Below, one piece after another: positions 1 through 34,809 of a stretch of 35,947 bases of DNA. Each line of letters starts with the position of its first letter. Positions within the stretch are counted from its first letter, which is position 1. A program made the translations under genes and the position numbers. Under the pieces are notes generated by a model. The model searched no databases and was not told the origin of the DNA. It saw nothing but the letters and a program-made list of their open reading frames with translations. This stretch comes from a virus. Lineage: Duplodnaviria > Heunggongvirae > Uroviricota > Caudoviricetes. The stretch lies in IMG/VR virus record IMGVR_UViG_2897375277_000005; one strand, given 5' to 3'.

Positions 1-1023
1 TTATGTGGATGAAATGTGGATACCTCCTTTTAACGGATTAAGTGAAATTGCATCCTGGAGGAAATCAGGAGCGAGGTGCGCATAGGTCATAGTTTGCTGG
101 ATCGTGGCGTGCCCCATAATTCGCTGGAGCGTAAGTATATTTCCTCCATTAATCATAAAGTGAGCTGCAAAGGTATGGCGTAGAACATGTACAGCCTGCC
201 CTTTCGGTAGGTCAGGCTTAACACTGCGAAGCACCTTGCGATATTCCTCATAATTGACGTCAAACAAAAGGCCGGATTTCTTTGTTTTGATCTCACTAAC
301 AACTTCATCAGAGACAGGAATAATTCGAACTTTTCCGTTTTTAGTTTTGTTAAACGTCACGCGGTTATTGATGATGTGTTCCGCGCGCAGATTTTTCGCT
401 TCTCCCCATCTCGCACCAGTACTGAGACAAAGTAGCGTAATCCGCCGGGCATCACCGCTTACTGCATCCAGTAATTTGGCGATTTCTTCCGTGGTGAGAT
501 ACGTCATTTCGGGTGATTTTCGTTTCAAAGAGGGGAGGGCGCGGAGCGGATTTTCTCCGTGAAATTCCCCGGCATTTGCCAGGAGTGTAAACATTCCTCC
601 GAGATCCGACTCATCACGCCGAACAGTAGACTCTTTTACTCCCAAGGATAAACGGGAGCTTCGATAAGCGGCCATGAAACGAGCATTAATCTGGCTAACC
701 CTTGGATCATTCATTTCTTTGATGATTTTTTTCAACCTGGTTAGAACGCCGTTAGCATATGGCTTATTGCGTCCACCCAATTCCCACCATAACGGAAGCA
801 GATCTGAGAGATGACGTTGCTCTGTTGGCTTTTCAAGCCATTCCTTATCGTGCATGTGGCTGAGAACATAACGCTCAAAGGCCACTGCATCTGCCTTTTT
901 CTTAAAAATCCGCTGAATCCGACGTCCACTTCGGCCACGCGGTCTAACATCCACTTTATACCGTCCACCATCGAGCGCTTTAATTGCCATTGGCAAGCCC
1001 TCCGGTGAAACGAGGAAAGACAT
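1..1023 (-). CDS. int: tyrosine integrase (P2 Int family)
   Basis: 340-aa minus-strand ORF at the prophage end next to the repressor; C-terminal region with HxLRHT and tyrosine-recombinase-like motifs (HVLRHTFAAHF...TMTYAHL). Length matches P2 Int (about 337 aa). Confidence 0.88.
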   Translation of the reverse strand: MSFLVSPEGLPMAIKALDGGRYKVDVRPRGRSGRRIQRIFKKKADAVAFERYVLSHMHDKEWLEKPTEQRHLSDLLPLWWELGGRNKPYANGVLTRLKKIIKEMNDPRVSQINARFMAAYRSSRLSLGVKESTVRRDESDLGGMFTLLANAGEFHGENPLRALPSLKRKSPEMTYLTTEEIAKLLDAVSGDARRITLLCLSTGARWGEAKNLRAEHIINNRVTFNKTKNGKVRIIPVSDEVVSEIKTKKSGLLFDVNYEEYRKVLRSVKPDLPKGQAVHVLRHTFAAHFMINGGNILTLQRIMGHATIQQTMTYAHLAPDFLQDAISLNPLKGGIHISST

Positions 1024-4084: not shown

Positions 4085-4204
4085 GAAATCAGAGCATGCA
4101 CACACAAAAAAACCGCTTGCCATGCCGCAATCAGTCAGGTTACATTTCTGCTGCACCTCATAAAACGGGTGCCGGGATTCTCAACCTGCTGACAAACGAA
4201 GCGC

Positions 4205-4228
4205 ACAACCGCGCCAGCGGTTTTTTTG
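4205..4228 (+). terminator. intrinsic-terminator-like hairpin inside the early operon
   Basis: AACCGC (4207-4212), loop GCCA, GCGGTT (4217-4222), followed by a T7 run (4221-4227). Confidence 0.4.
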
Positions 4229-4409
4229 TGCGTACTGTATTGCCACGTCTTTTTCGCACACGAATTATGGTGGGGCGTACGGGGCCGACTTCGGTCGGGC
4301 CGGTTTCTTCGTTTGCCGGTGTTGAGAACCCCGTACGTCTCGCCACCCCGAGATTCTCAACTCTGGTTGGTGAGTATCCAAAAACTCACAAACGAAGAGG
4401 CCAAACACC

Positions 4410-4640
4410 ATGGCAAACCGCAAACAGCACCGCGCTATCGCGGAGCGTCGTCACATCCAGACTGAAATCAACCGCAGACTTTCCCGCGCATTCCGCGTCG
4501 CTAAAATCATGCACATCAATATGCTGCATGAGCGTAGCTGCGAACTTTCAAACCTCTATTCATCCGCTGTTTTCAGCTATCTGGCGGATGATCTGCGCGA
4601 GCTTCAGCAGCTCTTTCAGCAGCAAAACAAACTCCATTAA
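4410..4640 (+). CDS. hypothetical basic protein (76 aa)
   Basis: ORF with GAAGAGG RBS about 10 nt upstream; Arg/Lys-rich N-terminus. No family recognised. Confidence 0.4.
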   Translation: MANRKQHRAIAERRHIQTEINRRLSRAFRVAKIMHINMLHERSCELSNLYSSAVFSYLADDLRELQQLFQQQNKLH

Positions 4641-4712
4641 TTCCTGTTCCAGGCCTTTCCTGCACCTTGCGGCGGGAGGCCTTCGCACATCTGTAGTAAA
4701 GAGAATTGCAGC

Positions 4713-5102
4713 ATGATTGACGCTCATGACTTCACAAGATGGGTGCGCACACAGGACACCCGTCTGGCTCCCATTCTTCAGGGATTATTTGATCTCTACA
4801 TCCGTGGTCGTGACAACAGAGCACGCACCACAAAACCGGAGAATGCGGACACCCTTTATTTCACAGTAGACGACTGCTACCGCGTGGATTTCACACCACA
4901 CGGGCTGGCGTTGCACTGCCTGACACCACACGGCGAATCACTGCTGGCGTATTATGACTCCCCGGCCTCCGTATTTGCGGCAATGCTGGCGCATCGCACT
5001 GCTGGCGGGTGTGCCTCGCTGAGTGAATACACCGCTGAATTTAACCGCCTTTCCGCCATCTTCTCGCAGGAGTGGCAGCGCGTGACGGGATACCAGCCAT
5101 GA
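4713..5102 (+). CDS. hypothetical protein, translationally coupled to A
   Basis: 129-aa ORF; its stop overlaps the A start (ATGA at 5099-5102). Confidence 0.55.
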   Translation: MIDAHDFTRWVRTQDTRLAPILQGLFDLYIRGRDNRARTTKPENADTLYFTVDDCYRVDFTPHGLALHCLTPHGESLLAYYDSPASVFAAMLAHRTAGGCASLSEYTAEFNRLSAIFSQEWQRVTGYQP

Positions 5103-7939
5103 GTGAGTTTGCATGGAGCTGGAATGAACCACGGCCAGCCATTGATCCGGCCAGATTTACGGAGCGCAGGCAGGAAACTGAAACCGACCTGCAACGCGCC
5201 ATCCGTTACTACCTTGAGGCGGACAAAAGGGCACAGGAAGAACAGGAAGCGAAGGAAGAAGCCTTTTTCGCACAATCCGCCATGGGTAAAAAACTCATGG
5301 CATCCCTTGAGGAAGCCGGACAGCGTGAAAAGCTGGCACAGAGCATCATCAGTAAGCGCCGGGCAACAGAACAAGACCCGGTAGCCCGTGCCTTTGCCAC
5401 ACTAAAGGCACTACCTGTTTATCTGCGTGAACCACTGAGCCGCCACCTCTCTTTCCTGCGCAAAAAACAGGAAGCCGATCGCCAGAAAGGCAAAAAGAGC
5501 TGGCAGGCGGAACGCTATGCACGCGGAACCCTGCGCAAAATATTCGAACGTCTGGATCGCACTGACGGACGCTGGCTGACACCGGGTTATCGCTCCCTTG
5601 CCGGGCGCGAACGCCTGGACGATTTGCTTTACCTGCCGCAGCTCAACAAGCACCAGATACAGACGCTGGCCACCATGACCGCGGCGATGTTCAGCAGCAC
5701 CTTCGAAACACTCTGCGATGGCTTTGGTGCCAGAGATGGCGAGCTGACCATGGATGTAATGTTGAAGGCTTACCGGATGCTGGCCCGCATGGCGTTACAC
5801 CTGCACGCCATGCCTCCACATTATGACGCACTAACAACAGACAAAGACCGGAGGAACGAACCGGACACGGAGCTGCTGCCGGGCGCAATCCTTCGCCTGA
5901 CCTGTGCGGAATGGTGGAAACGCAAACTGTGGCTGTTACGTTGCGAGTGGCGGGAAGAACAACTCCGCGCCGCCTGTCTGGTTTCCAGAAAGACATCACC
6001 CTATCTGAGCCAGGACGCGTTAAGCGAGTTTCGCGCACAGCGCGAGAAAACACGCGATTTCCTGAAAAGTTTCATGCTGGAAAACGAAGACGGGTTCACG
6101 ATTGATCTCGAGACAGTGTATTACGCGGGAGTAAGTAACCCGGTTCACCGTAAGGCAGAAATGATGGCCACCATGAAGGGACTGGAACTTCTGGCCGAAG
6201 CCCGTGGCGACAGAGCGGTGTTTCTGACCGTCACCTGCCCGTCAAAATACCACGCAACAACGGAGAACGGTCATCCGAACCCCAAATGGAACGGGGCCAC
6301 CATGCGCGACTCCAGCGATTACCTGGTTAACACGTTTTTTGCGGCGGTCCGCAAAAAACTGAACCGCGACGGCCTGCGCTGGTATGGCATCCGCACGGTG
6401 GAGCCTCACCATGACGGCACTGTGCACTGGCATATGATGGTCTTTGCACATCCGGACGAGATTGAAACCATCGTGTCCCACGTCTGCGATATTGCCATTC
6501 AGGAGGACCGCCACGAGCTGGGCGATGACATAACTCCGCGTTTTAAGGCGGAGTATGTCGACGGCTCAAAAGGCACACCAACCAGCTACATCGCCACCTA
6601 CATCGGAAAGAACCTGGACAGCCGCGCCGTGGATGGCATCGACCCGAAAACGGGCAAGCCACGCGTTGACCACGAAACCGGAAAATCAATGGCCGAGAGC
6701 GTGGAGCGCGCCATCGGCTGGGCGCGCCTTCACCGGGTCCGCCAGTTCCAGTTCTTTGGCATTCCCTCCCGTCAGGTGTGGCGTGAACTCCGCCGCCTTG
6801 CCAGCCAGATGGCACGCAACCCGGAGGGCCCGCAACGGCTGAAGGATGACGCAATGGATGCGGTTCTTGCTGCCGCTGATGCCGGGTGTTTTGCCACCTA
6901 CATTGAAAAACAGGGTGGCGTACTTGTTCCGCGCAAGGACTACCTGATTCGCACAGCCTACGACCTCGCAGATGAGCTGAACGATTACGGCGAACAGAGT
7001 GTACAGATTTACGGGATCTGGTCGCCACTCATCGGGGAATCCTCCCGTGTGTGCACGCACCCGGATAACTGGAAGCTGGTAAGACGTAAACCGGAAGCGG
7101 AAGACAGCACCCACGAAAATGGTTTTGACCTTCAGGGCGGCTCTGCCGCCCCTTGGACTCGTGGCAATAACTGTCCCCGTGTACAGGAAACAGACAACAA
7201 CGGGACAGAACAGCCGGAAGAACGGCCAGCACCGTGGCCGCAGCTTCCTGACGGCGTTGACGTGAACGAATGGGTGCGCTCACTGAAACGGCACGAACGC
7301 CGGGCGCTGATGCGTTCGCTGCGTGACAAACAGGCAAAAAACAGCAGTGATGAAATGCAGAACTGGACACAGAGCCGCAAACAGCCACAGCCTTTGCCTG
7401 ATAACCACGAATTACTCGCTAAAGAATGGCGGGAGTCTGCTGAATCTCTCGGCCTGCATATCGGTGAACAGCAGATGCAGCACCTGTTACGGGGCGGCAG
7501 TCTGTACGTTGACGGCAGCATCATTGCACCGCAGGGATTTGAAATTGTACGCAAACCGGATACCCGACCGGACAGCCGGATCACGCAGCTCTGGCAGCGC
7601 CTGAGCCGTAACCACGGCGTAAGCAGCACGGAGATCCGCCATAACCCGGTCGCCAGCTATCTGGAACAGCTGGGGGCATCAGACCCCGAAGCCGCCGCAC
7701 GCCTGGCATCCACACTTCAGCAAGACCAGAACACCATGAAAACACCCGTTACCGTGCTTTCTGACATGCTGCGCGCCATCCGCGACGCAGAGCACGCACA
7801 GAGAATCAGTGAAACCACTGAACGCGCCCGCCGCAAAGCAGACCTGCTGCGGGGTGGCCTGACCATTGGAAACAAAAAACAGACAGAAACGGGATTCACA
7901 AATCCCGTAAATGAGCAAAAAACGCGCCGCGATATATGA
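5099..7939 (+). CDS. A: replication initiation endonuclease (P2 A family, rolling-circle initiator) with long C-terminal extension
   Basis: 946-aa ORF at the P2 A position at the end of the early operon. Relaxase-like core with HWH (VHWHMMVFAH) and tyrosine (TSYIATYIGKN) motifs. About 180 aa longer than P2 A (761 aa). Confidence 0.8.
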   Translation: MSEFAWSWNEPRPAIDPARFTERRQETETDLQRAIRYYLEADKRAQEEQEAKEEAFFAQSAMGKKLMASLEEAGQREKLAQSIISKRRATEQDPVARAFATLKALPVYLREPLSRHLSFLRKKQEADRQKGKKSWQAERYARGTLRKIFERLDRTDGRWLTPGYRSLAGRERLDDLLYLPQLNKHQIQTLATMTAAMFSSTFETLCDGFGARDGELTMDVMLKAYRMLARMALHLHAMPPHYDALTTDKDRRNEPDTELLPGAILRLTCAEWWKRKLWLLRCEWREEQLRAACLVSRKTSPYLSQDALSEFRAQREKTRDFLKSFMLENEDGFTIDLETVYYAGVSNPVHRKAEMMATMKGLELLAEARGDRAVFLTVTCPSKYHATTENGHPNPKWNGATMRDSSDYLVNTFFAAVRKKLNRDGLRWYGIRTVEPHHDGTVHWHMMVFAHPDEIETIVSHVCDIAIQEDRHELGDDITPRFKAEYVDGSKGTPTSYIATYIGKNLDSRAVDGIDPKTGKPRVDHETGKSMAESVERAIGWARLHRVRQFQFFGIPSRQVWRELRRLASQMARNPEGPQRLKDDAMDAVLAAADAGCFATYIEKQGGVLVPRKDYLIRTAYDLADELNDYGEQSVQIYGIWSPLIGESSRVCTHPDNWKLVRRKPEAEDSTHENGFDLQGGSAAPWTRGNNCPRVQETDNNGTEQPEERPAPWPQLPDGVDVNEWVRSLKRHERRALMRSLRDKQAKNSSDEMQNWTQSRKQPQPLPDNHELLAKEWRESAESLGLHIGEQQMQHLLRGGSLYVDGSIIAPQGFEIVRKPDTRPDSRITQLWQRLSRNHGVSSTEIRHNPVASYLEQLGASDPEAAARLASTLQQDQNTMKTPVTVLSDMLRAIRDAEHAQRISETTERARRKADLLRGGLTIGNKKQTETGFTNPVNEQKTRRDI

Positions 7940-7984
7940 AGCGCGCATAAAACAGGCAAAAACGGGATTTCAGAATCCCGTAAA
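7887..7984. repeat. two copies of a 20-bp palindrome (ACGGGATT-N4-AATCCCGT), centres 73 bp apart; candidate parC-like centromere/operator
   Basis: Copy 1 at 7889-7908, inside the last codons of A; copy 2 at 7962-7981, 35 bp upstream of parM. CAAAAAAC-type motifs recur between them. Confidence 0.5.
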
Positions 7985-8015
7985 CGATTAATTAATCAAC
8001 ATAAGGAAAAGCGAC

Positions 8016-8975
8016 ATGAAAATTTGTATCGATGACGGCTCCACCAACATCAAGCTGGCATGGACTGAGAACGGCGAACGCCGCAACGCCATCAGCCCGA
8101 ACAGCTTCAAGTCGGAATGGTCTGCGCCGTTCGGTGGCACGCAGCCCGCGAACTACATGCTTGATGGCGTGCGCTATGGTTTTGATCCGGTCAGCGATCG
8201 CTTTGTCCAGACGACCGACACGCAATACCAGTACAGCGATGTGAATGTCATTGCCATTCATCACGCGCTGGTCAAATCAGGCATCACACCACAGGAAGTG
8301 GATGTGGTTGTCACCCTGCCACTGAGCGAATATTTCGACACAAACGCACAGCCGGACATGGCCAACATCAACCGCAAAAAAGCAAACGTCATGCGCCCGG
8401 TGGCGTACCAGAACGGAAAAGCATTCACTATCCGTAACGTACGGGTTATGCCTGAATCCATTCCGGCTGGTTTTAAAGCACTGGCTGACATGAGTCCGTT
8501 TGAATCCCTGCTGATTGTGGATTTAGGCGGAACCACGCTGGATGTGGCAAAGGTTCAGGGACAACTGGCAGGTATCAGCCAGGTGTTTTGCGATCCACAC
8601 GTAGGCGTTTCCCTGATGGCCGATGCCGTACTGTCGGTGATGGCCACTAACGGTATGCGTACCAGTCACCATATCGCCAATACCATTATCGAACATCGCC
8701 ACGATGAAGCCTGGCTGCGCCAGCACATCCACAATGACGCGCATTACGACAGCCTGATGGCGGTTATTCGTGAAAAGGAAGAAACACTGAAACAACGAGT
8801 GATCCGCGCGCTGGCGGGTTTTTCGGGTTACGGGCGGGTGATGGTTGTCGGTGGCGGGGCGGAGATTGTGGCACCCGCTATCCGCGAAGCCTGCGGAGTT
8901 AATGCGACTTTCATCGCGGACGGGGTGCCACAGTTTGCTCTGGTTAATGGGCTGTACGCAATGGACAAGGAGTAA
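8016..8975 (+). CDS. parM: actin-like segregation ATPase ParM/StbA
   Basis: N-terminus MKICIDDGSTNIKLAW...ISPNSFKSEW...YQYSDVNVIAIHHAL...RKKANV matches remembered plasmid R1 ParM (MLVFIDDGSTNIKLQW...ISPNSFKREW...WQYSDVNVVAVHHAL...RKKAN). Also carries the actin-fold phosphate motifs (DLGGTTLD, VVGGGAE). Confidence 0.85.
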   Translation: MKICIDDGSTNIKLAWTENGERRNAISPNSFKSEWSAPFGGTQPANYMLDGVRYGFDPVSDRFVQTTDTQYQYSDVNVIAIHHALVKSGITPQEVDVVVTLPLSEYFDTNAQPDMANINRKKANVMRPVAYQNGKAFTIRNVRVMPESIPAGFKALADMSPFESLLIVDLGGTTLDVAKVQGQLAGISQVFCDPHVGVSLMADAVLSVMATNGMRTSHHIANTIIEHRHDEAWLRQHIHNDAHYDSLMAVIREKEETLKQRVIRALAGFSGYGRVMVVGGGAEIVAPAIREACGVNATFIADGVPQFALVNGLYAMDKE

Positions 8976-8979
8976 ACCA

Positions 8980-9291
8980 ATGACGACACCAACCAGACGG
9001 ATAAGTTTCTATCTGAAGCCCGCCGCCGTCAAGAACGAAGGCGAAGCATGCGCCTGGCTGGACAGCCTTACACCAGAAGCCCGCAAAAGCGGCCAACGTG
9101 TGGCTTTTCTGGCCGGGCTGGCACTTCTGAAAATGAATCCGGCAGAGGCTTACCGACTGGCTGCATGGGCTGACGATGAGGCGTTATCAGTGACACAAAC
9201 CAGGACAGAACGCCCCGCGTCACAGCCAGTACCAACCTCACAGATAACCAGTCGGATGGCCGGAAATATCAGGGCGTTATTTCCCGAATAA
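8980..9291 (+). CDS. parR: ParR/StbB-like centromere-binding adaptor
   Basis: 103 aa directly downstream of parM with AGGAG RBS. RISFYLKPAAV...LDSLTPEARKSGQRVAFLAGLAL resembles R1 ParR (RTIAFKLNPDV...LDSIPQGERSRLNRAALTAGLAL). Confidence 0.65.
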   Translation: MTTPTRRISFYLKPAAVKNEGEACAWLDSLTPEARKSGQRVAFLAGLALLKMNPAEAYRLAAWADDEALSVTQTRTERPASQPVPTSQITSRMAGNIRALFPE

Positions 9292-9354
9292 CACAACATC
9301 AGGGCGCATCCGCCCTGATGACTTTAATCCGGGAACATAAACAAGGGGGACACA

Positions 9355-9690
9355 ATGCAACACATTGACAGAGAAAAAGCGCAGCGACTGATTGAGCGGA
9401 TGGAAGCGCTGGCGAAAGAAGAAAATGTCAACATCCAAAAAATAGCTGAATGTGGCCAGATAGTTCTTCGTCGTGAAAAAGACCTCAAACAACTGATGTC
9501 TGGCGAAACCAGCAAAACATGGACTTCAGGCGAGGAGACGATTTATTGCAGCTTCTGCAATAAATCTCAGTACGAAGTCACAAAGGTGATTGCCGGACCG
9601 TCTGTTTGCATCTGCAATGAGTGCGTGGATTTGTGCAATGAAATTATCAAGGGAGAAGTGACAGACCATGAAGAAAAAACGCATGAATGA
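9355..9690 (+). CDS. small protein with C-terminal ClpX-type C4 zinc-binding domain
   Basis: Residues 64-105 ([39 protein letters not shown]) are near-identical to the ClpX N-terminal zinc-binding domain ([41 protein letters not shown]). N-terminal 60 aa is helical and charged. AGGGGG RBS. Confidence 0.7.
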
Positions 9691-9750
9691 CGAATTTGAC
9701 GGCTTTTAATTTTATCGGGGTGCACTGTCGCCCCGCACGAGGAAAACACG

Positions 9751-10275
9751 ATGAAAAAATACGAATACATGCTAATGAAAGAAGCACTGCGGGCTGGTCT
9801 GGCTCCCTGTCCTGTATCCGTAGAAGCTGTTGTTGGGAACACGATTTTCCGAACGCTGCGAAATCGCGTATCCGTGAAGATGATTCACCAACCACCCAAA
9901 TCTACCAGCATGATCTATCTGCCGCTGCCCGAGGCTATCAAACTTATGCGTTCGCTGAAATTTGCGATTTGGATGCAGACACAACTCAACAAAGCGGTGC
10001 AAAACACCTTCGTTAAGAAACTGATGCCGGAGCTTGCTGCCAGAAGTGCAAAATGTACCAGACCCGCACTTCAATTTGATCTGTCATTGATTCAACAAGC
10101 TACGGAGGCAGAACTGTACCGCCTGTCACCTCTCCATGATGCTCACACGGAAGCCTCAGAAATGTTCCGGCTCATGTTTCAATTTAATTTTGCCGTTCGA
10201 CGCACACGCATTCAGGTCAATCGCATGATGCAGGCGCAGGAAGAGCTGACGCAACACAAAGGAGGCAACCAGTGA
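9751..10275 (+). CDS. hypothetical protein (174 aa)
   Basis: ORF with GAGGAAA RBS; no recognisable motif. Confidence 0.5.
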   Translation: MKKYEYMLMKEALRAGLAPCPVSVEAVVGNTIFRTLRNRVSVKMIHQPPKSTSMIYLPLPEAIKLMRSLKFAIWMQTQLNKAVQNTFVKKLMPELAARSAKCTRPALQFDLSLIQQATEAELYRLSPLHDAHTEASEMFRLMFQFNFAVRRTRIQVNRMMQAQEELTQHKGGNQ

Positions 10276-10447
10276 GCAAAATTGACTATCAGGCATTACG
10301 CGAGGCGGCACAAAACTATCAATCGACGCTGGCGTGGTATGAGGTTGACGCGGGCTAGTTTTGCCGCAAGGATAATTCGTTTCAGCGGGTGATTTTTTGC
10401 GCTATCATTCCGGCAGTGGTTCACGATTATTGGCAGGAAAGGCAATT

Positions 10448-11041
10448 ATGAGCAGTAAAAAAAATAAAATAACATCTATGGCCGCAGCGCTGGCGGTGGC
10501 TCTCGCCCCTGTTCCTGCCAGTAGCATTGTGCATCATGACTTATCAATCTCCCGGCACAGTACGTCTACGCTATCCCTCCAGGACGTAAAGGATTCTGTG
10601 GCATACCTTCCTATTGATGAGGCCACCAGTTATATGCTTAACCTGGCTGATAGGATGAAGACACACAGGGCAAACCTTCGCATCGAATGGGAAGAAAAGC
10701 AGATCCCTATTATTCTGAAAAATCAGAAAAAAGAGACTCAGGAAGGGTTTGAAAGCCTTTTCCGTCATATTGCGGTATGTGCAAGTTTTGTCGAGGCTGC
10801 AAGGGTTGCGCTGAAAAGCGTACCTGAAAGTAACGCGGAACTGAGAAAAGAGATTGTCGCTTTTGCTCGTTCCGCTGCGACGCTCCGCTATACGATTGAA
10901 GATATTTTATCCTTCATTGAAAGCACGCATGTGCCGAAGAAAACTTCAGATGCTGATCTGGGTGTTACCGCCGATCAGGTTCGCGCACTTATCCGCAGTG
11001 AACATAAAAAGCTGGGCCTTAAAGATCCAACGTTCCATTAA
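10448..11041 (+). CDS. hypothetical protein with N-terminal hydrophobic/signal-like segment (197 aa), upstream partner of the YafO-like toxin
   Basis: AGGAAAGG RBS before ATG 10448. N-terminus MSSKKNKITSMAAALAVALAPVPASS; stop lies 10 bp before the next start. Confidence 0.55.
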   Translation: MSSKKNKITSMAAALAVALAPVPASSIVHHDLSISRHSTSTLSLQDVKDSVAYLPIDEATSYMLNLADRMKTHRANLRIEWEEKQIPIILKNQKKETQEGFESLFRHIAVCASFVEAARVALKSVPESNAELRKEIVAFARSAATLRYTIEDILSFIESTHVPKKTSDADLGVTADQVRALIRSEHKKLGLKDPTFH

Positions 11042-11050
11042 GGCAGGGCC

Positions 11051-11431
11051 ATGATTAAAGTCTCTGTCCACAATGACATAGAACTCCCCGCAGTTGCTCG
11101 TAAATATGCACATGCTTTGCAGTCATGGAAAAACGGCGGATCTTTACCCTCAGTCTTTGGCAACGAAGGGCAGTGGGAAGATAGCGGGCGTCTTCGTGAT
11201 TCTTTTGTTTTTAAGATTCACATTCGTTTACCTGATGAACAGCCGTGGCCTGCAAAGCTACCTGCCGCCTCGCGTAAATCAAACAGTTATCTTGTTTACT
11301 CCCGCCATTTCTTATATCCAGATAAGTATCAGCTAATCAGCATTATGACACCCAATGCGCATGAGTTAGCCCGTACATCCTACATGGCAGAAATTGAGCG
11401 CAGAGCAGAAGAGTTCCAGTCTTCTTTTTGA
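11051..11431 (+). CDS. YafO-family toxin (ribosome-dependent mRNA interferase family)
   Basis: 126 aa. HIRLPDEQPWP...SYLVYSRHFLYPDKYQLISIMTPNAHELARTSYMAEIERRAEEF aligns with remembered E. coli YafO (HIHLANENNPFP...AHLVYCQGAFDEQAWLLIAILKPEPHKLARDNNQMHKIGKMAEAF). Confidence 0.65.
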   Translation: MIKVSVHNDIELPAVARKYAHALQSWKNGGSLPSVFGNEGQWEDSGRLRDSFVFKIHIRLPDEQPWPAKLPAASRKSNSYLVYSRHFLYPDKYQLISIMTPNAHELARTSYMAEIERRAEEFQSSF

Positions 11432-11472
11432 GTTTTGCGACGACTATCTATCAATCCCTTACTAATCTGAAA

Positions 11473-11500
11473 AGCTGCCTTTTGAAGGCGGCTTTTCTTT
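11473..11500 (+). terminator. rho-independent terminator closing the cargo operon
   Basis: Stem AGCTGCC/GGCGGCT (one G-U pair), 7-nt loop, then TTTTCTTT. Confidence 0.5.
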
Positions 11501-11522
11501 CTTCCTGGCCTTCTTTCTCTGT

Positions 11523-11973: not shown

Positions 11974-13020
11974 TCAGGATGTGGGCTGGGTGTCCAGCAG
12001 TGCGTAAGGGTTAAAGCGGATCACCTCTTCGCCAAGCCAGTCATTGATGTGCTTCATAGCCTCCATGACGGGCATCAGCTCGTTAATTGCGTAAACCCGC
12101 GCGGCCTTCTCCACATCACCAAACGCACTTTTTTCGCCCGGCATTGCCCCCATCAGTTGCGGCGGAACGCGGTGCGCAGCCAGCACATCATCACGGGATG
12201 CCGCCTTAACATTCATGAACTCATCCTTTGCGGTGATCTGCTGGAACGGCAAAATTTGCACCCCCTCTTTGCCCCCGTTGGGCGCGTGGATGAGCACGTT
12301 TTTAAACGCACCACCACCACGCGCACCCTGTAACGTTTCTTTCAGGGAGTCCATGCTTTCGCGGTTTACCTGCGCTGCACCGATGTAGATGATGCACCCG
12401 GCGTGGGATCCGTTGTCGTAATACAGTTTTCTGAACATGTCCGCCGAATGAGACAGGCTGGCCGAGAGTAATGCGCCAAGATATTCCGGCATGCCGTAAA
12501 TTTCCTGGTTAATGTCCGGATTCATCAGGTGGCACACTTTGCCAGGGCGAAACTGAAACGCGTCCTTGCCATCCTGCACATACCACCATGATTCAAGATC
12601 GCTTCCGCGTCGCATGTATTTCGCCAGTGCGTGCCGTAATTTAAGTGGTTCGCCGAGCATATTGCTCCGAAGCTCAAGGAATGCGTTACCGAACACAAAC
12701 CAGTCCAGCGCCAGCGCCGAGAAATCCTGCCGGGAAAGCAGCGGGTGCGGGATGTAGCAACCGAGCAATACATTGCGCTTAAAGTAAAGCGCAGACTGAT
12801 GCCAGGACGTTTGCCGGGCGGCTCTTGCCAGACCGTACCAGTCCACCGGGGTTTCATACCACCGCCCGTTATCAGCACAGTACATATTGTCCAGCAGGTC
12901 ATGCCCGGTCAGGCGATAAGGACCATCAAATGTGAATGCACTGAGCGATGATTCTTTCCTGAGCGCATCAGCGAGATCAATGCGTGAACTCATGCGCACT
13001 TTTTTATTTTTTCTGCTCAT
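11974..13020 (-). CDS. Q: portal protein (P2 Q family)
   Basis: 348-aa minus-strand ORF, leftward with P and divergent from O-N-M-L as in P2; size matches the P2 portal. Confidence 0.85.
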   Translation of the reverse strand: MSRKNKKVRMSSRIDLADALRKESSLSAFTFDGPYRLTGHDLLDNMYCADNGRWYETPVDWYGLARAARQTSWHQSALYFKRNVLLGCYIPHPLLSRQDFSALALDWFVFGNAFLELRSNMLGEPLKLRHALAKYMRRGSDLESWWYVQDGKDAFQFRPGKVCHLMNPDINQEIYGMPEYLGALLSASLSHSADMFRKLYYDNGSHAGCIIYIGAAQVNRESMDSLKETLQGARGGGAFKNVLIHAPNGGKEGVQILPFQQITAKDEFMNVKAASRDDVLAAHRVPPQLMGAMPGEKSAFGDVEKAARVYAINELMPVMEAMKHINDWLGEEVIRFNPYALLDTQPTS

Positions 13021-22658: not shown

Positions 22659-23259
22659 TTCGTTGTTACCACCATCAGCCAGCAATTTCATGCGTTGTGC
22701 CGAAGCCATCGGAACACGCATTACAGACATTCCGGTAGACCTCAACACGCTGTGGTCGCCGGATACCTGCCCGGTGCATCTGCTGCCTTATCTCGCCTGG
22801 GCATTTTCCGTTGACCGCTGGGATCGCAACTGGCCGGAAGAGACAAAGCGACAGGTGATTCGTGATGCATGGCTGATACACCGACACAAAGGGACCATCA
22901 GCGCACTGCGAAGAGCCGTGGAGCCTCTCGGCTACCTGATTGAAGTAAAGGAGTGGTGGCAACTCAACGAGGAGCCGGGAACATTTCGCATTGTTATCGG
23001 AGTACTTGATCAGGGCATCACCGATGAAATGTATCAGGAACTTGAGCGCCTTATTGCGGATGCAAAACCAGTAAGTCGCCATCTGACGGGGCTGGCGATC
23101 AGCCTGAGTGTGAACGGAAAGATTTTCGTTGGTACGGGATGCTATCACGGCGATGCCCTGACGGTTTATCCCTACACCCCGGAGTCCATTATTGTCGAAG
23201 GGGATTATTTCCCTGCCCCGGCCATTCATTTAATTGATAATCTGAGAGTAAACGCATGA
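22651..23259 (+). CDS. I: baseplate protein (P2 I family)
   Basis: Internal ATG 22651 overlaps the J stop; 202 aa. Confidence 0.75.
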   Translation: MSNSLLPPSASNFMRCAEAIGTRITDIPVDLNTLWSPDTCPVHLLPYLAWAFSVDRWDRNWPEETKRQVIRDAWLIHRHKGTISALRRAVEPLGYLIEVKEWWQLNEEPGTFRIVIGVLDQGITDEMYQELERLIADAKPVSRHLTGLAISLSVNGKIFVGTGCYHGDALTVYPYTPESIIVEGDYFPAPAIHLIDNLRVNA

Positions 23260-24890
23260 CAGTGAAATACTACGCCATTCTGACTAATCAGGGCGCGGCA
23301 CGACTGGCTAACGCGACAATGCTCGGCAGTAAGCTGAATCTGACGCAAATGGCCGTTGGTGATGCAAATGGTGTGTTACCAACACCAGACCCTGCACAAA
23401 CAAAACTGATTAACCAGAAACGCATTGCACCGCTGAATCTTCTGAGTGTTGACCCTAACAATCAGAGCCAGATTATTGCGGAGCAAATCATCCCTGAAAA
23501 CGAGGGAGGATTCTGGATCCGTGAGATTGGTCTTTATGATGATGAAGGCGTACTCATTGCGGTGGCGAACTGCCCGGAAACGTACAAACCGCAGTTGCAG
23601 GAAGGCAGCGGTCGTACCCAGACTATCCGCATGATTCTGGTTGTCACGAATACCGAAGCCATCACGCTGAAAATCGACCCATCGGTGGTTCTGGCAACCC
23701 GCAAATATGTGGATGATAAAATCTCAGAGCACGAACAGTCACGACGTCACCCGGACGCCTCGCTGACCGCAAAAGGTTTTACTCAGTTAAGCAGTGCAAT
23801 TAACAGTGAATCAGAAACACTGGCCGCAACACCGAAAGCGGTTAAGGCTGCATATGACCTGGCTAACGGGAAATATACCGCCCAGAACGCCACCACTATA
23901 CAAAAAGGGATTGTTCAGCTCAGTAGCGCCACGAACAGCACGTCTGAAACGCTGGCAGCGACACCAAAAGCTGTTAAGGTGGTAATGGATGAAACGAACA
24001 AGAAAGCACCATTAAACAGCCCGGCACTGACCGGAACGCCAACAACACCAACAGCGCCACAGGGAACTAATAGTACCCAGATCGCAAGCACGGCTTTCGT
24101 TATGGCCGCGATTGCCGCACTTGTAGATTCGTCACCTGATGCACTGAACACGCTGAACGAACTGGCTGCGGCGCTGGGCAATGACCCGAATTTTGCGACC
24201 ACCATGACTAACGCGCTTGCGGGTAAGCAACCGAAGGATGCCACCCTGACGGCGCTGGCGGAGCTTGCTACATCAGCAGATAAACTCCCATATTTTACAG
24301 GGGCAGATCGTGCCGCGTTAACCGCGTTGACAAGTGTTGGACGTGCCATTCTTGGTAAAACCAGCACTCAGGGAGTTCTTGATTACCTTGGTTTGGGAGA
24401 AGGCTCTGCATTACCGGTTGGGGTGCCTGTTCCGTGGCCTTCAGCCACTCCGCCAACAGGCTGGCTGAAATGCAACGGTGCCGCTTTTTCTGCTGAAGAA
24501 TACCCGGAACTGGCAAAGGCTTATCCGACAAATAAATTGCCTGATTTACGTGGTGAGTTTATTCGTGGCTGGGATGACGGGCGTGGTATTGATGCTGTAC
24601 GTGCCTTGCTAAGTCTTCAGAATGGAGGAGTGGAATCACACACCCACCAAGGGCAGCTCTTCAGAGTTAGTGATTATCGTACAAAAGAAATACCAGCATC
24701 AGAAGTTATGGGAAGAGGATATATTGCAAGCCTGACGCCGGGTGCTGATAGCCCACTTGATTTTGATGATTATTCTGTATCTTCTAATCCAAATGGATAT
24801 TTTGTCGGGAATCAGAGAACAACAGCATATGGGATAAATGAAACCCGTCCACGGAATATTGCATTTAACTATATCGTGAGGGCTGCATAA
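23256..24890 (+). CDS. H: tail fibre protein (P2 H family), current C-terminal variant
   Basis: 544 aa; internal tail-fibre repeats (SETLAATPKAVK twice); the C-terminal third lies inside the invertible segment. Confidence 0.85.
   Translation: MTVKYYAILTNQGAARLANATMLGSKLNLTQMAVGDANGVLPTPDPAQTKLINQKRIAPLNLLSVDPNNQSQIIAEQIIPENEGGFWIREIGLYDDEGVLIAVANCPETYKPQLQEGSGRTQTIRMILVVTNTEAITLKIDPSVVLATRKYVDDKISEHEQSRRHPDASLTAKGFTQLSSAINSESETLAATPKAVKAAYDLANGKYTAQNATTIQKGIVQLSSATNSTSETLAATPKAVKVVMDETNKKAPLNSPALTGTPTTPTAPQGTNSTQIASTAFVMAAIAALVDSSPDALNTLNELAAALGNDPNFATTMTNALAGKQPKDATLTALAELATSADKLPYFTGADRAALTALTSVGRAILGKTSTQGVLDYLGLGEGSALPVGVPVPWPSATPPTGWLKCNGAAFSAEEYPELAKAYPTNKLPDLRGEFIRGWDDGRGIDAVRALLSLQNGGVESHTHQGQLFRVSDYRTKEIPASEVMGRGYIASLTPGADSPLDFDDYSVSSNPNGYFVGNQRTTAYGINETRPRNIAFNYIVRAA
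24376..24401. other. invertase crossover site (hix/gix/cix-like), left
   Basis: TTCTTGATTACC-TT-GGTTTGGGAGAA: 12-2-12 architecture resembling hixL (TTCTTGAAAACCAAGGTTTTTGATAA). Lies inside H codons 374-382. Confidence 0.65.
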
Positions 24891-25492
24891 TGGATAACGC
24901 TGTATTAAATAGCGAGTTTATTGCTACAAAGGCGGGGAATATTACCGTCTATAACTATGATGGCGAAACACGGGAATATATTTCCACATCAACTGAATAT
25001 CTTGCCGTTGGTGTCGGTATCCCTGCATATTCCTGTTTAGATGCCCCTGGCACATACAAAGCTGGTTATGCAATCTGCCGATCTGTAGATTTTAACTCAT
25101 GGGAATATGTGCCAGACCATCGCGGTGAAATCGTCTTTAGCACCGAAACAGGAGAATCAAAAGAAATCACAGCTCCGGGTGATTACCCTGATAATACAAC
25201 CACTATCGCCCCGTTAACGCCATACGATAAATGGGATGGTGAGAAATGGGTGACGGATACCGAAGCACAGCATAGCGCCGCAGTAGATGCAGCAGAAGCA
25301 CAGCGCCAGTCACTGATTGATACTGCAATGGCTTCAATCAGTCTGATTCAGCTGAAATTGCAGGCCGGACGTAAACTGACGCAGGCAGAAACAACCAGCC
25401 TTAACGCTGTACTGGATTACATTGACGCGGTGACGGCAACTGATACCAGCACCGCGCCAGATGTCATCTGGCCTGAACTGCCGGAGGCGTAG
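24890..25492 (+). CDS. G: tail fibre assembly chaperone (P2 G / Tfa family)
   Basis: 200 aa directly after H; conserved Tfa C-terminal motif (LDYIDAV...APDVIWPELP). Confidence 0.8.
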   Translation: MDNAVLNSEFIATKAGNITVYNYDGETREYISTSTEYLAVGVGIPAYSCLDAPGTYKAGYAICRSVDFNSWEYVPDHRGEIVFSTETGESKEITAPGDYPDNTTTIAPLTPYDKWDGEKWVTDTEAQHSAAVDAAEAQRQSLIDTAMASISLIQLKLQAGRKLTQAETTSLNAVLDYIDAVTATDTSTAPDVIWPELPEA

Positions 25493-25904
25493 GCCATTCA
25501 ATATCTGGCGCACTGGCGGTATCGACCAGCTCCAGTGCGTCCAGATAATCCAGCCACAAATTATATTGTGCCAGTTCCTCACCTTTCAGACGACCAATAG
25601 CTGCTTTACCAGGCCATTGCTTACCGTTCATGTAATCATTGGCTAAATCTATTCTTTTTTGCTTCTCGACATCAGCGGTGACAATTAATTCTTCTCGTGT
25701 AGGTGGAGGAATATCACCCCATGATGGCATGTTATTTAAAGTTATAAGTTGCTTACCTGTAGGGGGAGTGCCGGAAAACTCATAATAAATGCTGTCACTA
25801 ACGTTAATGGCATCATGCGGCCAACAATTATTATCAACATAATCAGCCTGCCACTCGATGGCATAAAAACGGGACTCAGATGGACTGAACACAAAACGAT
25901 TCAT
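25464..25904 (-). CDS. alternative tail fibre assembly chaperone (inverted orientation)
   Basis: 146-aa minus-strand ORF convergent with tfa, overlapping its 3' end; shares the Tfa C-terminal motif (LDYLDAL...APDIEWPTPP). Confidence 0.75.
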   Translation of the reverse strand: MNRFVFSPSESRFYAIEWQADYVDNNCWPHDAINVSDSIYYEFSGTPPTGKQLITLNNMPSWGDIPPPTREELIVTADVEKQKRIDLANDYMNGKQWPGKAAIGRLKGEELAQYNLWLDYLDALELVDTASAPDIEWPTPPAVQAR

Positions 25905-25905
25905 A

Positions 25906-26214
25906 TTAATATCCTATAGCTAAAAACATAGCGTCTGAGGTGTTTGTATTTACAGCAATATTCATCATGACCTGAGCGGTAAATCCTGTATTGCTTACCC
26001 ACTCGCATGAGTTAGTTATCTGAACCCATGTTAATTTGGTAGAAAAAACGCCCCAGCAATTAACAGGGAACGGGACAGGGAAAGTCACTGGCACAGAATT
26101 TACTACACCGACAGTAGTCAAATTTGCGAGCGTCCGGCGAAACACCTGAATCTTAAGACCATCAGGACCTGTAAATAACAAATTATCGGTGTACTGCCCG
26201 CTTGCTCTTAAACC
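25906..26214 (-). CDS. alternative tail fibre C-terminal cassette (promoterless; fused to H constant region after inversion)
   Basis: Minus-strand reading frame running from the right crossover site to a stop at 25906. Frame is preserved across the crossover core. Confidence 0.65.
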   Translation of the reverse strand, partial: GLRASGQYTDNLLFTGPDGLKIQVFRRTLANLTTVGVVNSVPVTFPVPFPVNCWGVFSTKLTWVQITNSCEWVSNTGFTAQVMMNIAVNTNTSDAMFLAIGY

Positions 26215-26228
26215 AACGTTTAAGAAAA
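26203..26228. other. invertase crossover site (hix/gix/cix-like), right, inverted relative to the left site
   Basis: TGCTCTTAAACC-AA-CGTTTAAGAAAA; core AA is the reverse complement of the left core TT, as required for inversion. Confidence 0.6.
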
Positions 26229-26283
26229 TGCAGAGATTACGGCTAACTGGCATCATCCCCGGTTTTTATTCAGGGGATCCATC

Positions 26284-26883
26284 ATGCTTATTGGCTATGT
26301 CCGCGTATCAACAAATGACCAGAATACAGAATTGCAGCGTAACGCGCTGGAGTGCGCAGGATGTGAACTGATTTTTGAAGATAAAATCAGCGGAACGAAA
26401 TCAGCCAGACCGGGATTGAAAAAACTGCTCAGAACGCTATCAGAAGGAGATACGCTGGTTGTCTGGAAGCTGGACAGACTGGGCAGAAGTATGAAACACC
26501 TGATCACGCTTATTGAGGAATTGCGGGAAAAAGGTGTTAATTTCCGTAGTCTGACGGACAGCATTGACACATCAACACCCATGGGGCGTTTCTTTTTTCA
26601 CGTCATGGGAGCTTTAGCCGAAATGGAACGTGAATTAATTGTAGAGCGTACACTGGCCGGGCTGGCAGCAGCACGCGCACAAGGACGCATTGGCGGACGT
26701 CGCCCGAAGTTGACAAAAGAACAACACGAGCAAATAGCGAGGCTGATTAAAAACGGTCATGACAGGAAACAACTGGCGATCATTTACGACATCGGCATAT
26801 CGACGATTTATCGTTATCACCCTGTAGGCGATATACAGGCTGAAGAAACAACCAGGCAGATTCAGGAAAATGAAAACCGCTAA
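26284..26883 (+). CDS. serine DNA invertase (Hin/Gin/Cin/Pin family)
   Basis: MLIGYVRVSTNDQNTELQ...GDTLVVWKLDRLGRSMKHL...catalytic Ser in VRVST and C-terminal HTH; 199 aa. Confidence 0.9.
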   Translation: MLIGYVRVSTNDQNTELQRNALECAGCELIFEDKISGTKSARPGLKKLLRTLSEGDTLVVWKLDRLGRSMKHLITLIEELREKGVNFRSLTDSIDTSTPMGRFFFHVMGALAEMERELIVERTLAGLAAARAQGRIGGRRPKLTKEQHEQIARLIKNGHDRKQLAIIYDIGISTIYRYHPVGDIQAEETTRQIQENENR

Positions 26884-34512: not shown

Positions 34513-34809
34513 ATGAGTGAAATGGTATTTTGTCGCGGATGCGGCAAGGAAATACATAAAGATGCCACATCCTGCCCCAATTGTGGAGCACCTCAAAGAA
34601 CAGCAAGTTCAAAAAGCAGAATGACAGCCGCACTACTGGCTTTCTTTTTAGGTGGTCTTGGTGCACACAAATTTTATTTAGGTAAAGTGGGGCAAGGATT
34701 CCTTTACCTTATTTTTTGCTGGACATTCATTCCGGCAATCGTGGCATTTATTGAGTTTTTTATCTATCTATGCACCTCTGATGAAGACTTTGCCCGCAAA
34801 TATGGCTAA
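34513..34809 (+). CDS. zinc-ribbon plus TM2-domain membrane protein
   Basis: N-terminal CxxC...CxxC (CRGCGKEIHKDATSCPNCG) followed by two hydrophobic helices typical of TM2-domain proteins (LAFFLGGLGAHKFYLGK...). Confidence 0.6.
   Translation: MSEMVFCRGCGKEIHKDATSCPNCGAPQRTASSKSRMTAALLAFFLGGLGAHKFYLGKVGQGFLYLIFCWTFIPAIVAFIEFFIYLCTSDEDFARKYG

Follow-up and report, generated by a model that had tools for sequence, protein, structure and literature searches.

What does a P2-like prophage carry between its replication gene A (gpA) and its portal gene Q, and do the genes found there form one functional unit? The question arises from a viral DNA of 35,947 nucleotides (nt), IMG/VR record IMGVR_UViG_2897375277_000005 (hereafter the window), in which positions 7887-11500 hold a compact gene cluster at this place. 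An earlier note had described the cluster as a seven-gene cargo operon and as the best candidate in the window for an undescribed accessory or defence module. We found that the interval is a mosaic of four parts: i) parC-like repeats with the genes parM and parR, ii) a gene for a small protein with a ClpX-type zinc finger (ClpX-ZnF), iii) a gene for a 174-amino-acid (aa) ORFan together with a truncated Ea22-like gene, and iv) a cassette of two genes encoding a 197-aa partner protein and a YafO-family toxin. On balance, we consider it probable that this hotspot mosaic combines a partition backbone and exchangeable morons with a YafO cassette acting as a defence or addiction module of the toxin-antitoxin (TA) type.

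Mosaic inheritance of the gpA-gpQ interval

According to megablast, the window represents a P88-like phage of genus Xuanwuvirus (Peduoviridae, the P2 family) from E. coli. A whole P2-family prophage is present, with an integrase, a Cox-like gene and gpA, and with portal and terminase genes on the minus strand from 11974 (Table 1). The cluster lies between gpA and Q, as the earlier note had correctly stated, and this is the location by which the P2-like gpA-gpQ hotspot was defined in a survey of more than 20,000 E. coli genomes (Rousset et al. 2022, PMC9122126). Its content is variable among close prophages as well: P88, P88_4B11, 520873, phiSM and many E. coli genomes differ 3' of parR. The interval is the tin/old-equivalent, cos-proximal gpA-gpQ cargo hotspot, and the variability anticipated for such a locus was borne out, since the cargo differs strongly among the related prophages compared. 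The P2 cos sequence was looked for and not found.

The six genes listed in the note exist and are encoded co-directionally on the plus strand, at or near the positions it had assigned to them, as judged from open reading frames (ORFs) and family matches. The count of seven does not hold; the extra element is either the Ea22-like remnant or a small ORF past the terminator.

The distribution of the interval was determined in 5426 complete E. coli genomes, using the 3.6-kb interval as the query. Matches were obtained in 1357 genomes (~25%), mostly over the segment of the gpA end and parMR only, and at least 80% of the interval was present in only seven genomes. The 3' end of gpA, parM and parR are 94-98% identical to those of P88, P88_4B11, 520873, 503458, phiSM and others, and similarity to other Xuanwuvirus phages ends at 9291-9317 of the window, where a GC-rich hairpin directly follows parR. 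Because the relatives share gene A, parM and parR and then diverge, we regard parMR as the backbone of the P88-like genus and the hairpin as the point after which variable cargo starts. In P88, parR is followed by the ClpX-ZnF gene and unrelated small ORFs. Elsewhere, its place is taken by a gene for a 196-aa hypothetical protein (P88_4B11), an 89-aa ORF (520873) or a reverse-strand membrane protein gene (phiSM), and alternative cargo in E. coli genomes includes Ea22-like, XF1762, DUF3800 and DUF4760 genes and IS5.

Breakpoints of inheritance were located at 9291-9317, 9687, ~10345 and ~11519. Inheritance is separate for the ClpX-ZnF gene, the 174-aa gene and the YafO pair, and the relatives compared already show that the six genes are not inherited together as one block. 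The comparison of gpA-gpQ intervals that the note had proposed thus confirmed presence/absence variation and contradicted a common block. As for the profile searches and the defence-system search that it had also proposed, four of the six proteins were assigned to families with scores well above threshold, and no known defence system was recognized, in agreement with the note: none of the six proteins matched PADLOC-DB v2.0.0 at E <= 0.1.

Table 1. Features that flank or make up the gpA-gpQ interval of the window
Feature	Position	Strand	Evidence and remarks
Integrase	1-1023	-	P2-family prophage gene
Replication gene A (gpA)	5072-7939	+	Phage_GPA 7.9e-129; phrog_91, nicking at origin; hotspot left flank
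parC-like region	7873-7987		Two 42-nt direct repeats, 7873-7914 and 7946-7987
parM, actin-like partition ATPase	8016-8975	+	StbA_N 6.9e-82; ParM C-terminal domain 9.9e-69
parR, StbB-type adaptor	8980-9291	+	Plasmid_stab_B 1.6e-24; phrog_2515 partition protein 3e-58
GC-rich hairpin	9297-9320		Free energy (dG) -18.4, z -5.2; directly after parR, at boundary of conserved backbone and cargo
ClpX-ZnF protein, 111 aa	9355-9690	+	zf-C4_ClpX 2.2e-16, 59.9 bits; phrog_6797
174-aa ORFan	9751-10275	+	No family match
Ea22-like N-terminal remnant	10272-10358	+	First 24-28 codons remain; cut by cassette insertion
Two-gene cassette, 1.2 kb	10346-11518	+	Breakpoints vs records L003 and L002 and vs P88; system 123 of Rousset et al.
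Promoter-like element TTTTTTGCGCTATCAT	10387-10404	+	Candidate -10 TATCAT
Partner, 197 aa	10448-11041	+	No family match; hydrophobic N-terminus
YafO-family toxin, 126 aa	11051-11431	+	YafO_toxin 2.3e-27; RelE/ParE-fold (BECR), putative mRNA endoribonuclease
Intrinsic terminator	11469-11497	+	13-bp stem and T-rich tail; dG -19.3, z -3.2
Portal gene Q	11974-13020	-	ORF; portal annotation in relatives; hotspot right flank

The YafO cassette

The last two breakpoints are the bounds of the cassette insertion, which lie inside an Ea22-like gene. The cassette contains exactly two genes, a conserved upstream element and a terminator, the latter having been placed at 11473-11500 by the earlier note and found at nearly the same position (Table 1). 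The upstream element TTTTTTGCGCTATCAT is kept in five of six cassettes whose further upstream flanks are unrelated, which suggests that it may serve as the cassette promoter. Among the E. coli genomes, the cassette is present in 7 of 5426, every time at the gpA-gpQ site, and it was found in none of 50,697 phage records and none of 72,556 plasmid records.

Outside of this site, the pair occurs in diverse surroundings. We examined 11 independent genomic contexts with an intact pair, and the partner always preceded the toxin, the two genes being separated by a gap of 9-11 nt or overlapping by 1-8 nt. The contexts comprise P2-like prophages, where the pair lies past int at the att-proximal end (Buttiauxella, Serratia proteamaculans, Klebsiella); the A-Q hotspot, after hicAB (Erwinia pyrifoliae); HP1-like prophages, after the tail genes (S. 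marcescens record L007; records L021/L022); a prophage edge beside phd/fic (Salmonella); a lambdoid prophage, between the Q antiterminator and holin genes (Xenorhabdus); and the non-phage chromosomal rne-sbcB interval. Neighbours of the cassette are often other TA pairs, for example hicAB or phd/fic. The cassette is a self-contained transcription unit which moves among prophage cargo sites across Enterobacterales.

Pairwise identities of partners and toxins co-vary (r = 0.95), with the partner diverging about twice as fast. Both genes are under purifying selection, non-synonymous divergence (pN) being 0.06-0.33 against saturated synonymous divergence (pS) of 0.7-1.0. The pair has the generic layout of a type II TA locus: it is bicistronic, the partner gene is directly upstream, the spacer is short or replaced by an overlap, and the genes are inherited jointly. 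An apparent case of a disrupted partner next to an intact toxin, in Salmonella records L025/L026, would have spoken against an antitoxin role but was rejected, as the reading frame is complete and the 68-aa call arose from faulty gene calling. In a Klebsiella genome (L012, ~4240-4330), the cassette adjoins a candidate tRNA 3' end, judged by eye (...GGTTCAAGTCCCGCTCCGGGTACCA); if this candidate holds, the pair would lie between att and int, right at the prophage border.

The toxin matched PF13957 with 95.5 bits (cut-off 25) over profile positions 2-100 of 101 and has the RelE-like (BECR) fold. Residues H57, R75 and H104 are invariant over 39 sequences including YafO of E. coli K-12. The protein is putatively an mRNA endoribonuclease toxic to the cell. 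It shares the toxin family, the invariant His/Arg residues and 34% identity with K-12 YafO, and the K-12 YafN-YafO pair likewise has the order antitoxin, then toxin, with a short spacer. It is not, however, the orthologue of K-12 YafO, scoring 59.4 bits with NCBIfam PRK09885 against a cut-off of 153. Furthermore, the partner is 197 aa long, unrelated to YafN and endowed with a signal-like N-terminus, whereas YafN has 97 aa, and the K-12 pair belongs to the LexA-controlled dinB operon (dinB-yafN-yafO-yafP), whereas the cassette pair does not.

The partner protein

Four regions can be distinguished in the partner: a Sec-type signal-like segment (residues 1-24), a low-confidence linker (25-51), a three-helix bundle (56-159) and a conserved C-terminal helix (175-189). 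The AlphaFold2 model has a predicted local distance difference test (pLDDT) score of 70.6, with low confidence in the N-terminal 51 residues. The family is tiny; it comprises 23 clusters in 5.8 billion proteins and, by profile search, 33 representatives in 1.84 billion, none of them offering an annotated link. No relative of the partner was found in Pfam, NCBIfam, PHROG or the Protein Data Bank (PDB). Comparison of the model with the PDB by Foldseek, together with a PDB sequence search, returned generic helical-bundle noise only, and a Pfam scan of 21 family members revealed no consistent family and no antitoxin family.

The signal-like segment consists of an n-region with K/R residues (charge +1 to +5), an uncharged core of 14-23 aa and the motif (L/M)AP(V/I)PA, with A at -1 and V/I at -3. 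No other block of the partner is as conserved as this hydrophobic segment. Signal peptides are rarely conserved to this degree, and the segment would fit a role in interaction or recognition.

The most divergent relative of the partner (P0102; L019 4001-4600, L020 241-840) has no signal-like N-terminus. It is encoded right after gpA of another P2-like phage, beside hicA-hicB, with no YafO gene or remnant adjacent, and represents the only exception to the partner-toxin pairing. We considered P0102 as evidence for a cytoplasmic function of the partner and found it uninformative either way: it is very divergent, lacks YafO beside it and has hicAB as a neighbour.

The partition backbone

The parM product aligned with ParM of plasmid R1 (1mwk) over its full length (E 2.3e-92) and shares ~52% identity with the ParM proteins of thousands of conjugative plasmids from enterobacteria. 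The parR gene starts 4 nt past the parM stop, and no homologue of its product with a solved structure was found by sequence search. The two 42-nt repeats, 73 base pairs (bp) apart, are situated directly upstream of parM, the first one within the 3' end of gene A. Each contains a 20-bp palindrome, ACGGGATT-N4-AATCCCGT; it exists in two copies only, and the relatives are too similar for covariation. The repeats plausibly function as parC/operator with predicted ParR binding sites.

Together, the repeats, parM and parR are a partition cassette of type II (R1-like), and they belong to the genus backbone. The cassette resembles ParMRC of R1 in the full-length alignment of ParM, in the small ParR-type gene downstream and in the repeats directly upstream. 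It differs in that it is carried by an integrating phage of the P2 family and its ParR is of the StbB type (PF10784). The centromere differs as well: parC of R1 is organized as ten 11-bp iterons, whereas the candidate centromere here has two 42-nt repeats with 20-bp palindromes.

Presumably, the cassette segregates extrachromosomal phage genomes. About a quarter of P2-like phages were reported to have a putative partition system, by means of which they might be maintained as plasmids, and system 1 (Plasmid_stab_B / StbA) of the same survey accounted for 4592 of 18,150 loci (PMC9122126). A complete P88-like genome (int, cox, gpA, parM, parR, terminase, capsid, tail) has been deposited as a circular 34.5-kb 'plasmid' of E. 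coli (L030, NZ_CP148288.1, 1-34461), and 2 of 1794 matching places in RefSeq E. coli genomes were on plasmids. The deposited genome is consistent with an episomal state supported by ParMRC and is no proof of it.

Proposed role of the cassette and alternative explanations

From the anatomy, mosaic inheritance, toxin fold, pairing and selection described above, we infer neutralisation, a trigger and a defence phenotype as follows. The partner would keep the YafO-family ribonuclease (RNase) inactive. Upon phage infection or prophage loss, the partner may be lost or perturbed and the RNase freed, which would then cleave mRNA and arrest the cell. The outcome would be abortive-infection defence and/or prophage addiction. 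Abortive-infection defence is favoured as the selected role over addiction because of the hotspot location and the mobility of the cassette among prophage cargo sites.

Several observations weigh against this model. The partner is not similar to YafN (E 49), has no DNA-binding family in Pfam or NCBIfam and, at 197 aa, lacks the usual features of type II antitoxins. Sec signal peptide features are complete in 20 of the 23 representatives of its family, and Phobius predicts a signal peptide (Table S5B, PMC9122126). If cleaved, the partner would sit in the periplasm, apart from a cytoplasmic RNase. Neither cassette protein matched a PADLOC model, a consensus promoter scan did not call the TTTTTTGCGCTATCAT element, and we found no experimental work on the partner-YafO pair in the literature. 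As for the backbone, the parC assignment is based on just two repeats, in comparison with the ten iterons of R1.

Some of these points lead to the most serious alternative, which we regard as unlikely, namely that the partner is truly exported or tethered to the membrane rather than being a classical antitoxin. Two versions can be envisaged: i) a system linked to the envelope, whose periplasmic or membrane component would report envelope or Sec perturbation to the RNase, or ii) two co-expressed, mechanistically separate functions, for example a superinfection-exclusion envelope protein and an RNase serving the phage. The tripartite signal kept across the family and its prediction by Phobius speak for export, as do the low-confidence linker between signal and helical bundle in the AlphaFold2 model and the position of the Xenorhabdus pair, which is a late-expressed moron site. 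However, the obligate pairing, the translational coupling in 11 contexts and the co-divergence suggest that the two proteins are functionally linked in a direct way. An RNase of the RelE fold whose catalytic-type residues are conserved has to be held in check by an inhibitor; a partner located in the periplasm could not do this in the cytoplasm, and no further inhibitor gene would fit into the cassette. The hydrophobic segment, being the most conserved part of the protein, is atypical of a signal peptide and more like an interaction surface. Moreover, once the signal is cleaved, no evident transmembrane segment is left for signalling across the membrane.

Quite unlikely, in our opinion, is the explanation that the pair is a TA module selected for maintenance, acting by post-segregational killing: together with ParMRC it would stabilise the phage genome in its extrachromosomal state, or it would keep the prophage from being lost. 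Partition and TA loci are commonly adjacent on plasmids, and here the pair likewise lies beside a partition cassette. The P88-like genome deposited as a circular plasmid and the occurrence of the pair at the non-phage rne-sbcB site could be understood in the same way. However, the pair is rare among parMR prophages (7 genomes, compared with 1357 matching the interval) and is therefore no part of a maintenance backbone. It is absent from the plasmid records, it accompanies P2-like prophages showing no parMR in other genera, and the hotspot is enriched in defence systems.

Finally, the operon proposed in the earlier note, with all six or seven genes forming a single undescribed accessory or defence system, is highly improbable: although the genes are co-directional and tightly packed, end with the strongest terminator-like site of the plus strand (13-bp stem) and occupy a hotspot known to hold defence systems, the units are found apart (most matching genomes have parMR without the full interval; the ClpX-ZnF gene occurs without the YafO pair in P88 and L003; the pair occurs without the ClpX-ZnF gene in six of seven E. 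coli carriers, and without any other interval gene in other genera), and the interval is interrupted by the hairpin after parR, the truncated gene remnant and the separate promoter-like element of the pair. For the same reasons, the combination of genes cannot be upheld as one module: parMR is genus backbone and the other units are inherited independently.

Exchangeable genes between parR and the cassette

The ClpX-ZnF gene, the 174-aa ORFan and the truncated Ea22-like gene are exchangeable morons. The ClpX-ZnF protein consists of a helical N-terminus of ~50 aa and a copy of the N-terminal C4 zinc-binding domain of ClpX. It is 54% identical to residues 2-62 of E. coli ClpX, with all four Cys kept. 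The AAA+ module is absent: the alignment ends at ClpX residue 62, and the equivalog model scored 47.5 bits against a cut-off of 370. Such a protein could be a decoy that draws away adaptors or substrates of ClpX. Its gene is present in P88; other prophages have an Ea22-like gene in its place, and in the closest genome (CP191552) it is a pseudogene. We looked for it among systems 6-22 of Table S5B (PMC9122126) and did not find it.

The 174-aa ORFan had no match in Pfam, PHROG, NCBIfam or PADLOC. Its homologues form only eight clusters in 5.8 billion proteins, coming from E. coli and Shigella where the source names an organism. In relatives (L003), the ORFan gene is translationally coupled to an intact Ea22-like gene of 174 aa. 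In the window, similarity of the remnant to this intact version stops at ~10345, and its RefSeq equivalent is annotated as an incomplete ead/Ea22-like coding sequence.

Other features of the prophage

Gene A is intact in the window (955 codons) and has a long C-terminal extension past the Phage_GPA domain (residues 194-518). In two close RefSeq prophages it is annotated with a frameshift (L001 1228-4054, L003 2228-5054), and in phage 520873 (L010 1733-4553) it is broken into three coding sequences. Shortly upstream of gene A, Rfam matches at gathering level were obtained on the plus strand at 4153-4227 (isrK, 62 bits) and 4263-4350 (C4 antisense RNA, 79 bits), both within or overlapping an Ash-like ORF (4096-4716). 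This is an antisense control element of the P1/P7 type in a phage of the P2 family.

A serine resolvase/invertase gene (26284-26883; Resolvase 6.1e-52 and HTH_7) adjoins ORFs on the opposite strand (25464-26256, minus), which come after ORFs at 23256-25492. From gene position alone, we conjecture an invertible host-range segment with tail-fibre genes at 23256-26883. Near the right end of the prophage, 34513-34809 (plus strand) encodes a small protein that combines a zinc ribbon at its N-terminus with a TM2 membrane domain; this is possibly another cargo position.

Relation to known systems and significance

The label 'undescribed' given to the cluster in the earlier note has to be withdrawn for the most part of what is seen here, as the hotspot, the exact gene arrangement and the pair with identical sequences have already been catalogued (PMC9122126). 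Table S5A of that survey lists StbA + Plasmid_stab_B + zf-C4_ClpX + hyp + hyp + YafO_toxin + hyp, and Table S5B lists system 123, 'YafO_toxin', with 24 occurrences and the remark 'signal peptide: protein 1'. The partner and the toxin of the window are identical in sequence to proteins 1 and 2, respectively, of this system. The catalogue and our analysis therefore agree in the definition of the locus (gpA to gpQ, next to cos), in the arrangement and in the pair sequences. The catalogue, however, just lists the pair, with no mechanism and no spread beyond E. coli; our analysis adds its movement across genera, the co-divergence, the fold and how large the family of the partner is. YafO is absent from the tested-system table of PMC9122126, and a search of its supplement matched file 6, Table S5, only. 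Our literature searches on YafO with phage defence, on the two RefSeq accessions of the pair and on P88 partition found no functional work, and a yafO-like gene of the Salmonella prophage mTmII is mentioned in the literature merely as a possible TA.

In comparison with tin and old of P2, the interval has the same genomic position and likewise holds accessory genes expressed from the prophage. Unlike the P2 locus, it shows no homology to Tin or Old and consists mostly of a maintenance cassette and small morons, not of exclusion genes.

Toxin-antitoxin-chaperone (TAC) systems act in abortive infection. Those with a toxin of the RelE superfamily (HigB-type, PMC11980606) offer an analogy, a functional one only: a RelE-fold RNase is joined to an antitoxin with a hydrophobic extension and a link to a SecB/Sec-type chaperone. 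In contrast to TAC, the cassette contains no chaperone gene, its hydrophobic segment is N-terminal and resembles a genuine signal peptide, and no antitoxin homology was detected. By this analogy, one might imagine that the partner, as a true Sec substrate, controls the YafO-family RNase and thereby couples control of the toxin to export or to the state of the envelope, though we hold this to be distinctly improbable. For example, the cytoplasmic precursor could be the antitoxin, and the signal-like segment could confer chaperone dependence or act as a degron or export element, much like the chaperone-addiction region of TAC antitoxins but relying on the Sec machinery of the host.

The hotspot itself is little news, its site, partition cassette and gene order having been published, and testing the 'seven-gene operon' would amount to testing four unrelated things. 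Only one unit, the 1.2-kb YafO cassette, has the typical traits of a mobile module for defence or addiction. It deserves attention since the canonical YafN is swapped for a tiny, unannotated family with a conserved signal peptide, and since it occurs in three types of prophages throughout Enterobacterales. If the coupling to Sec were true, perturbation of Sec, chaperones or membrane potential by a phage would shift the precursor pool and release the RNase. This would represent a previously undescribed wiring of a RelE-superfamily toxin to an infection signal.

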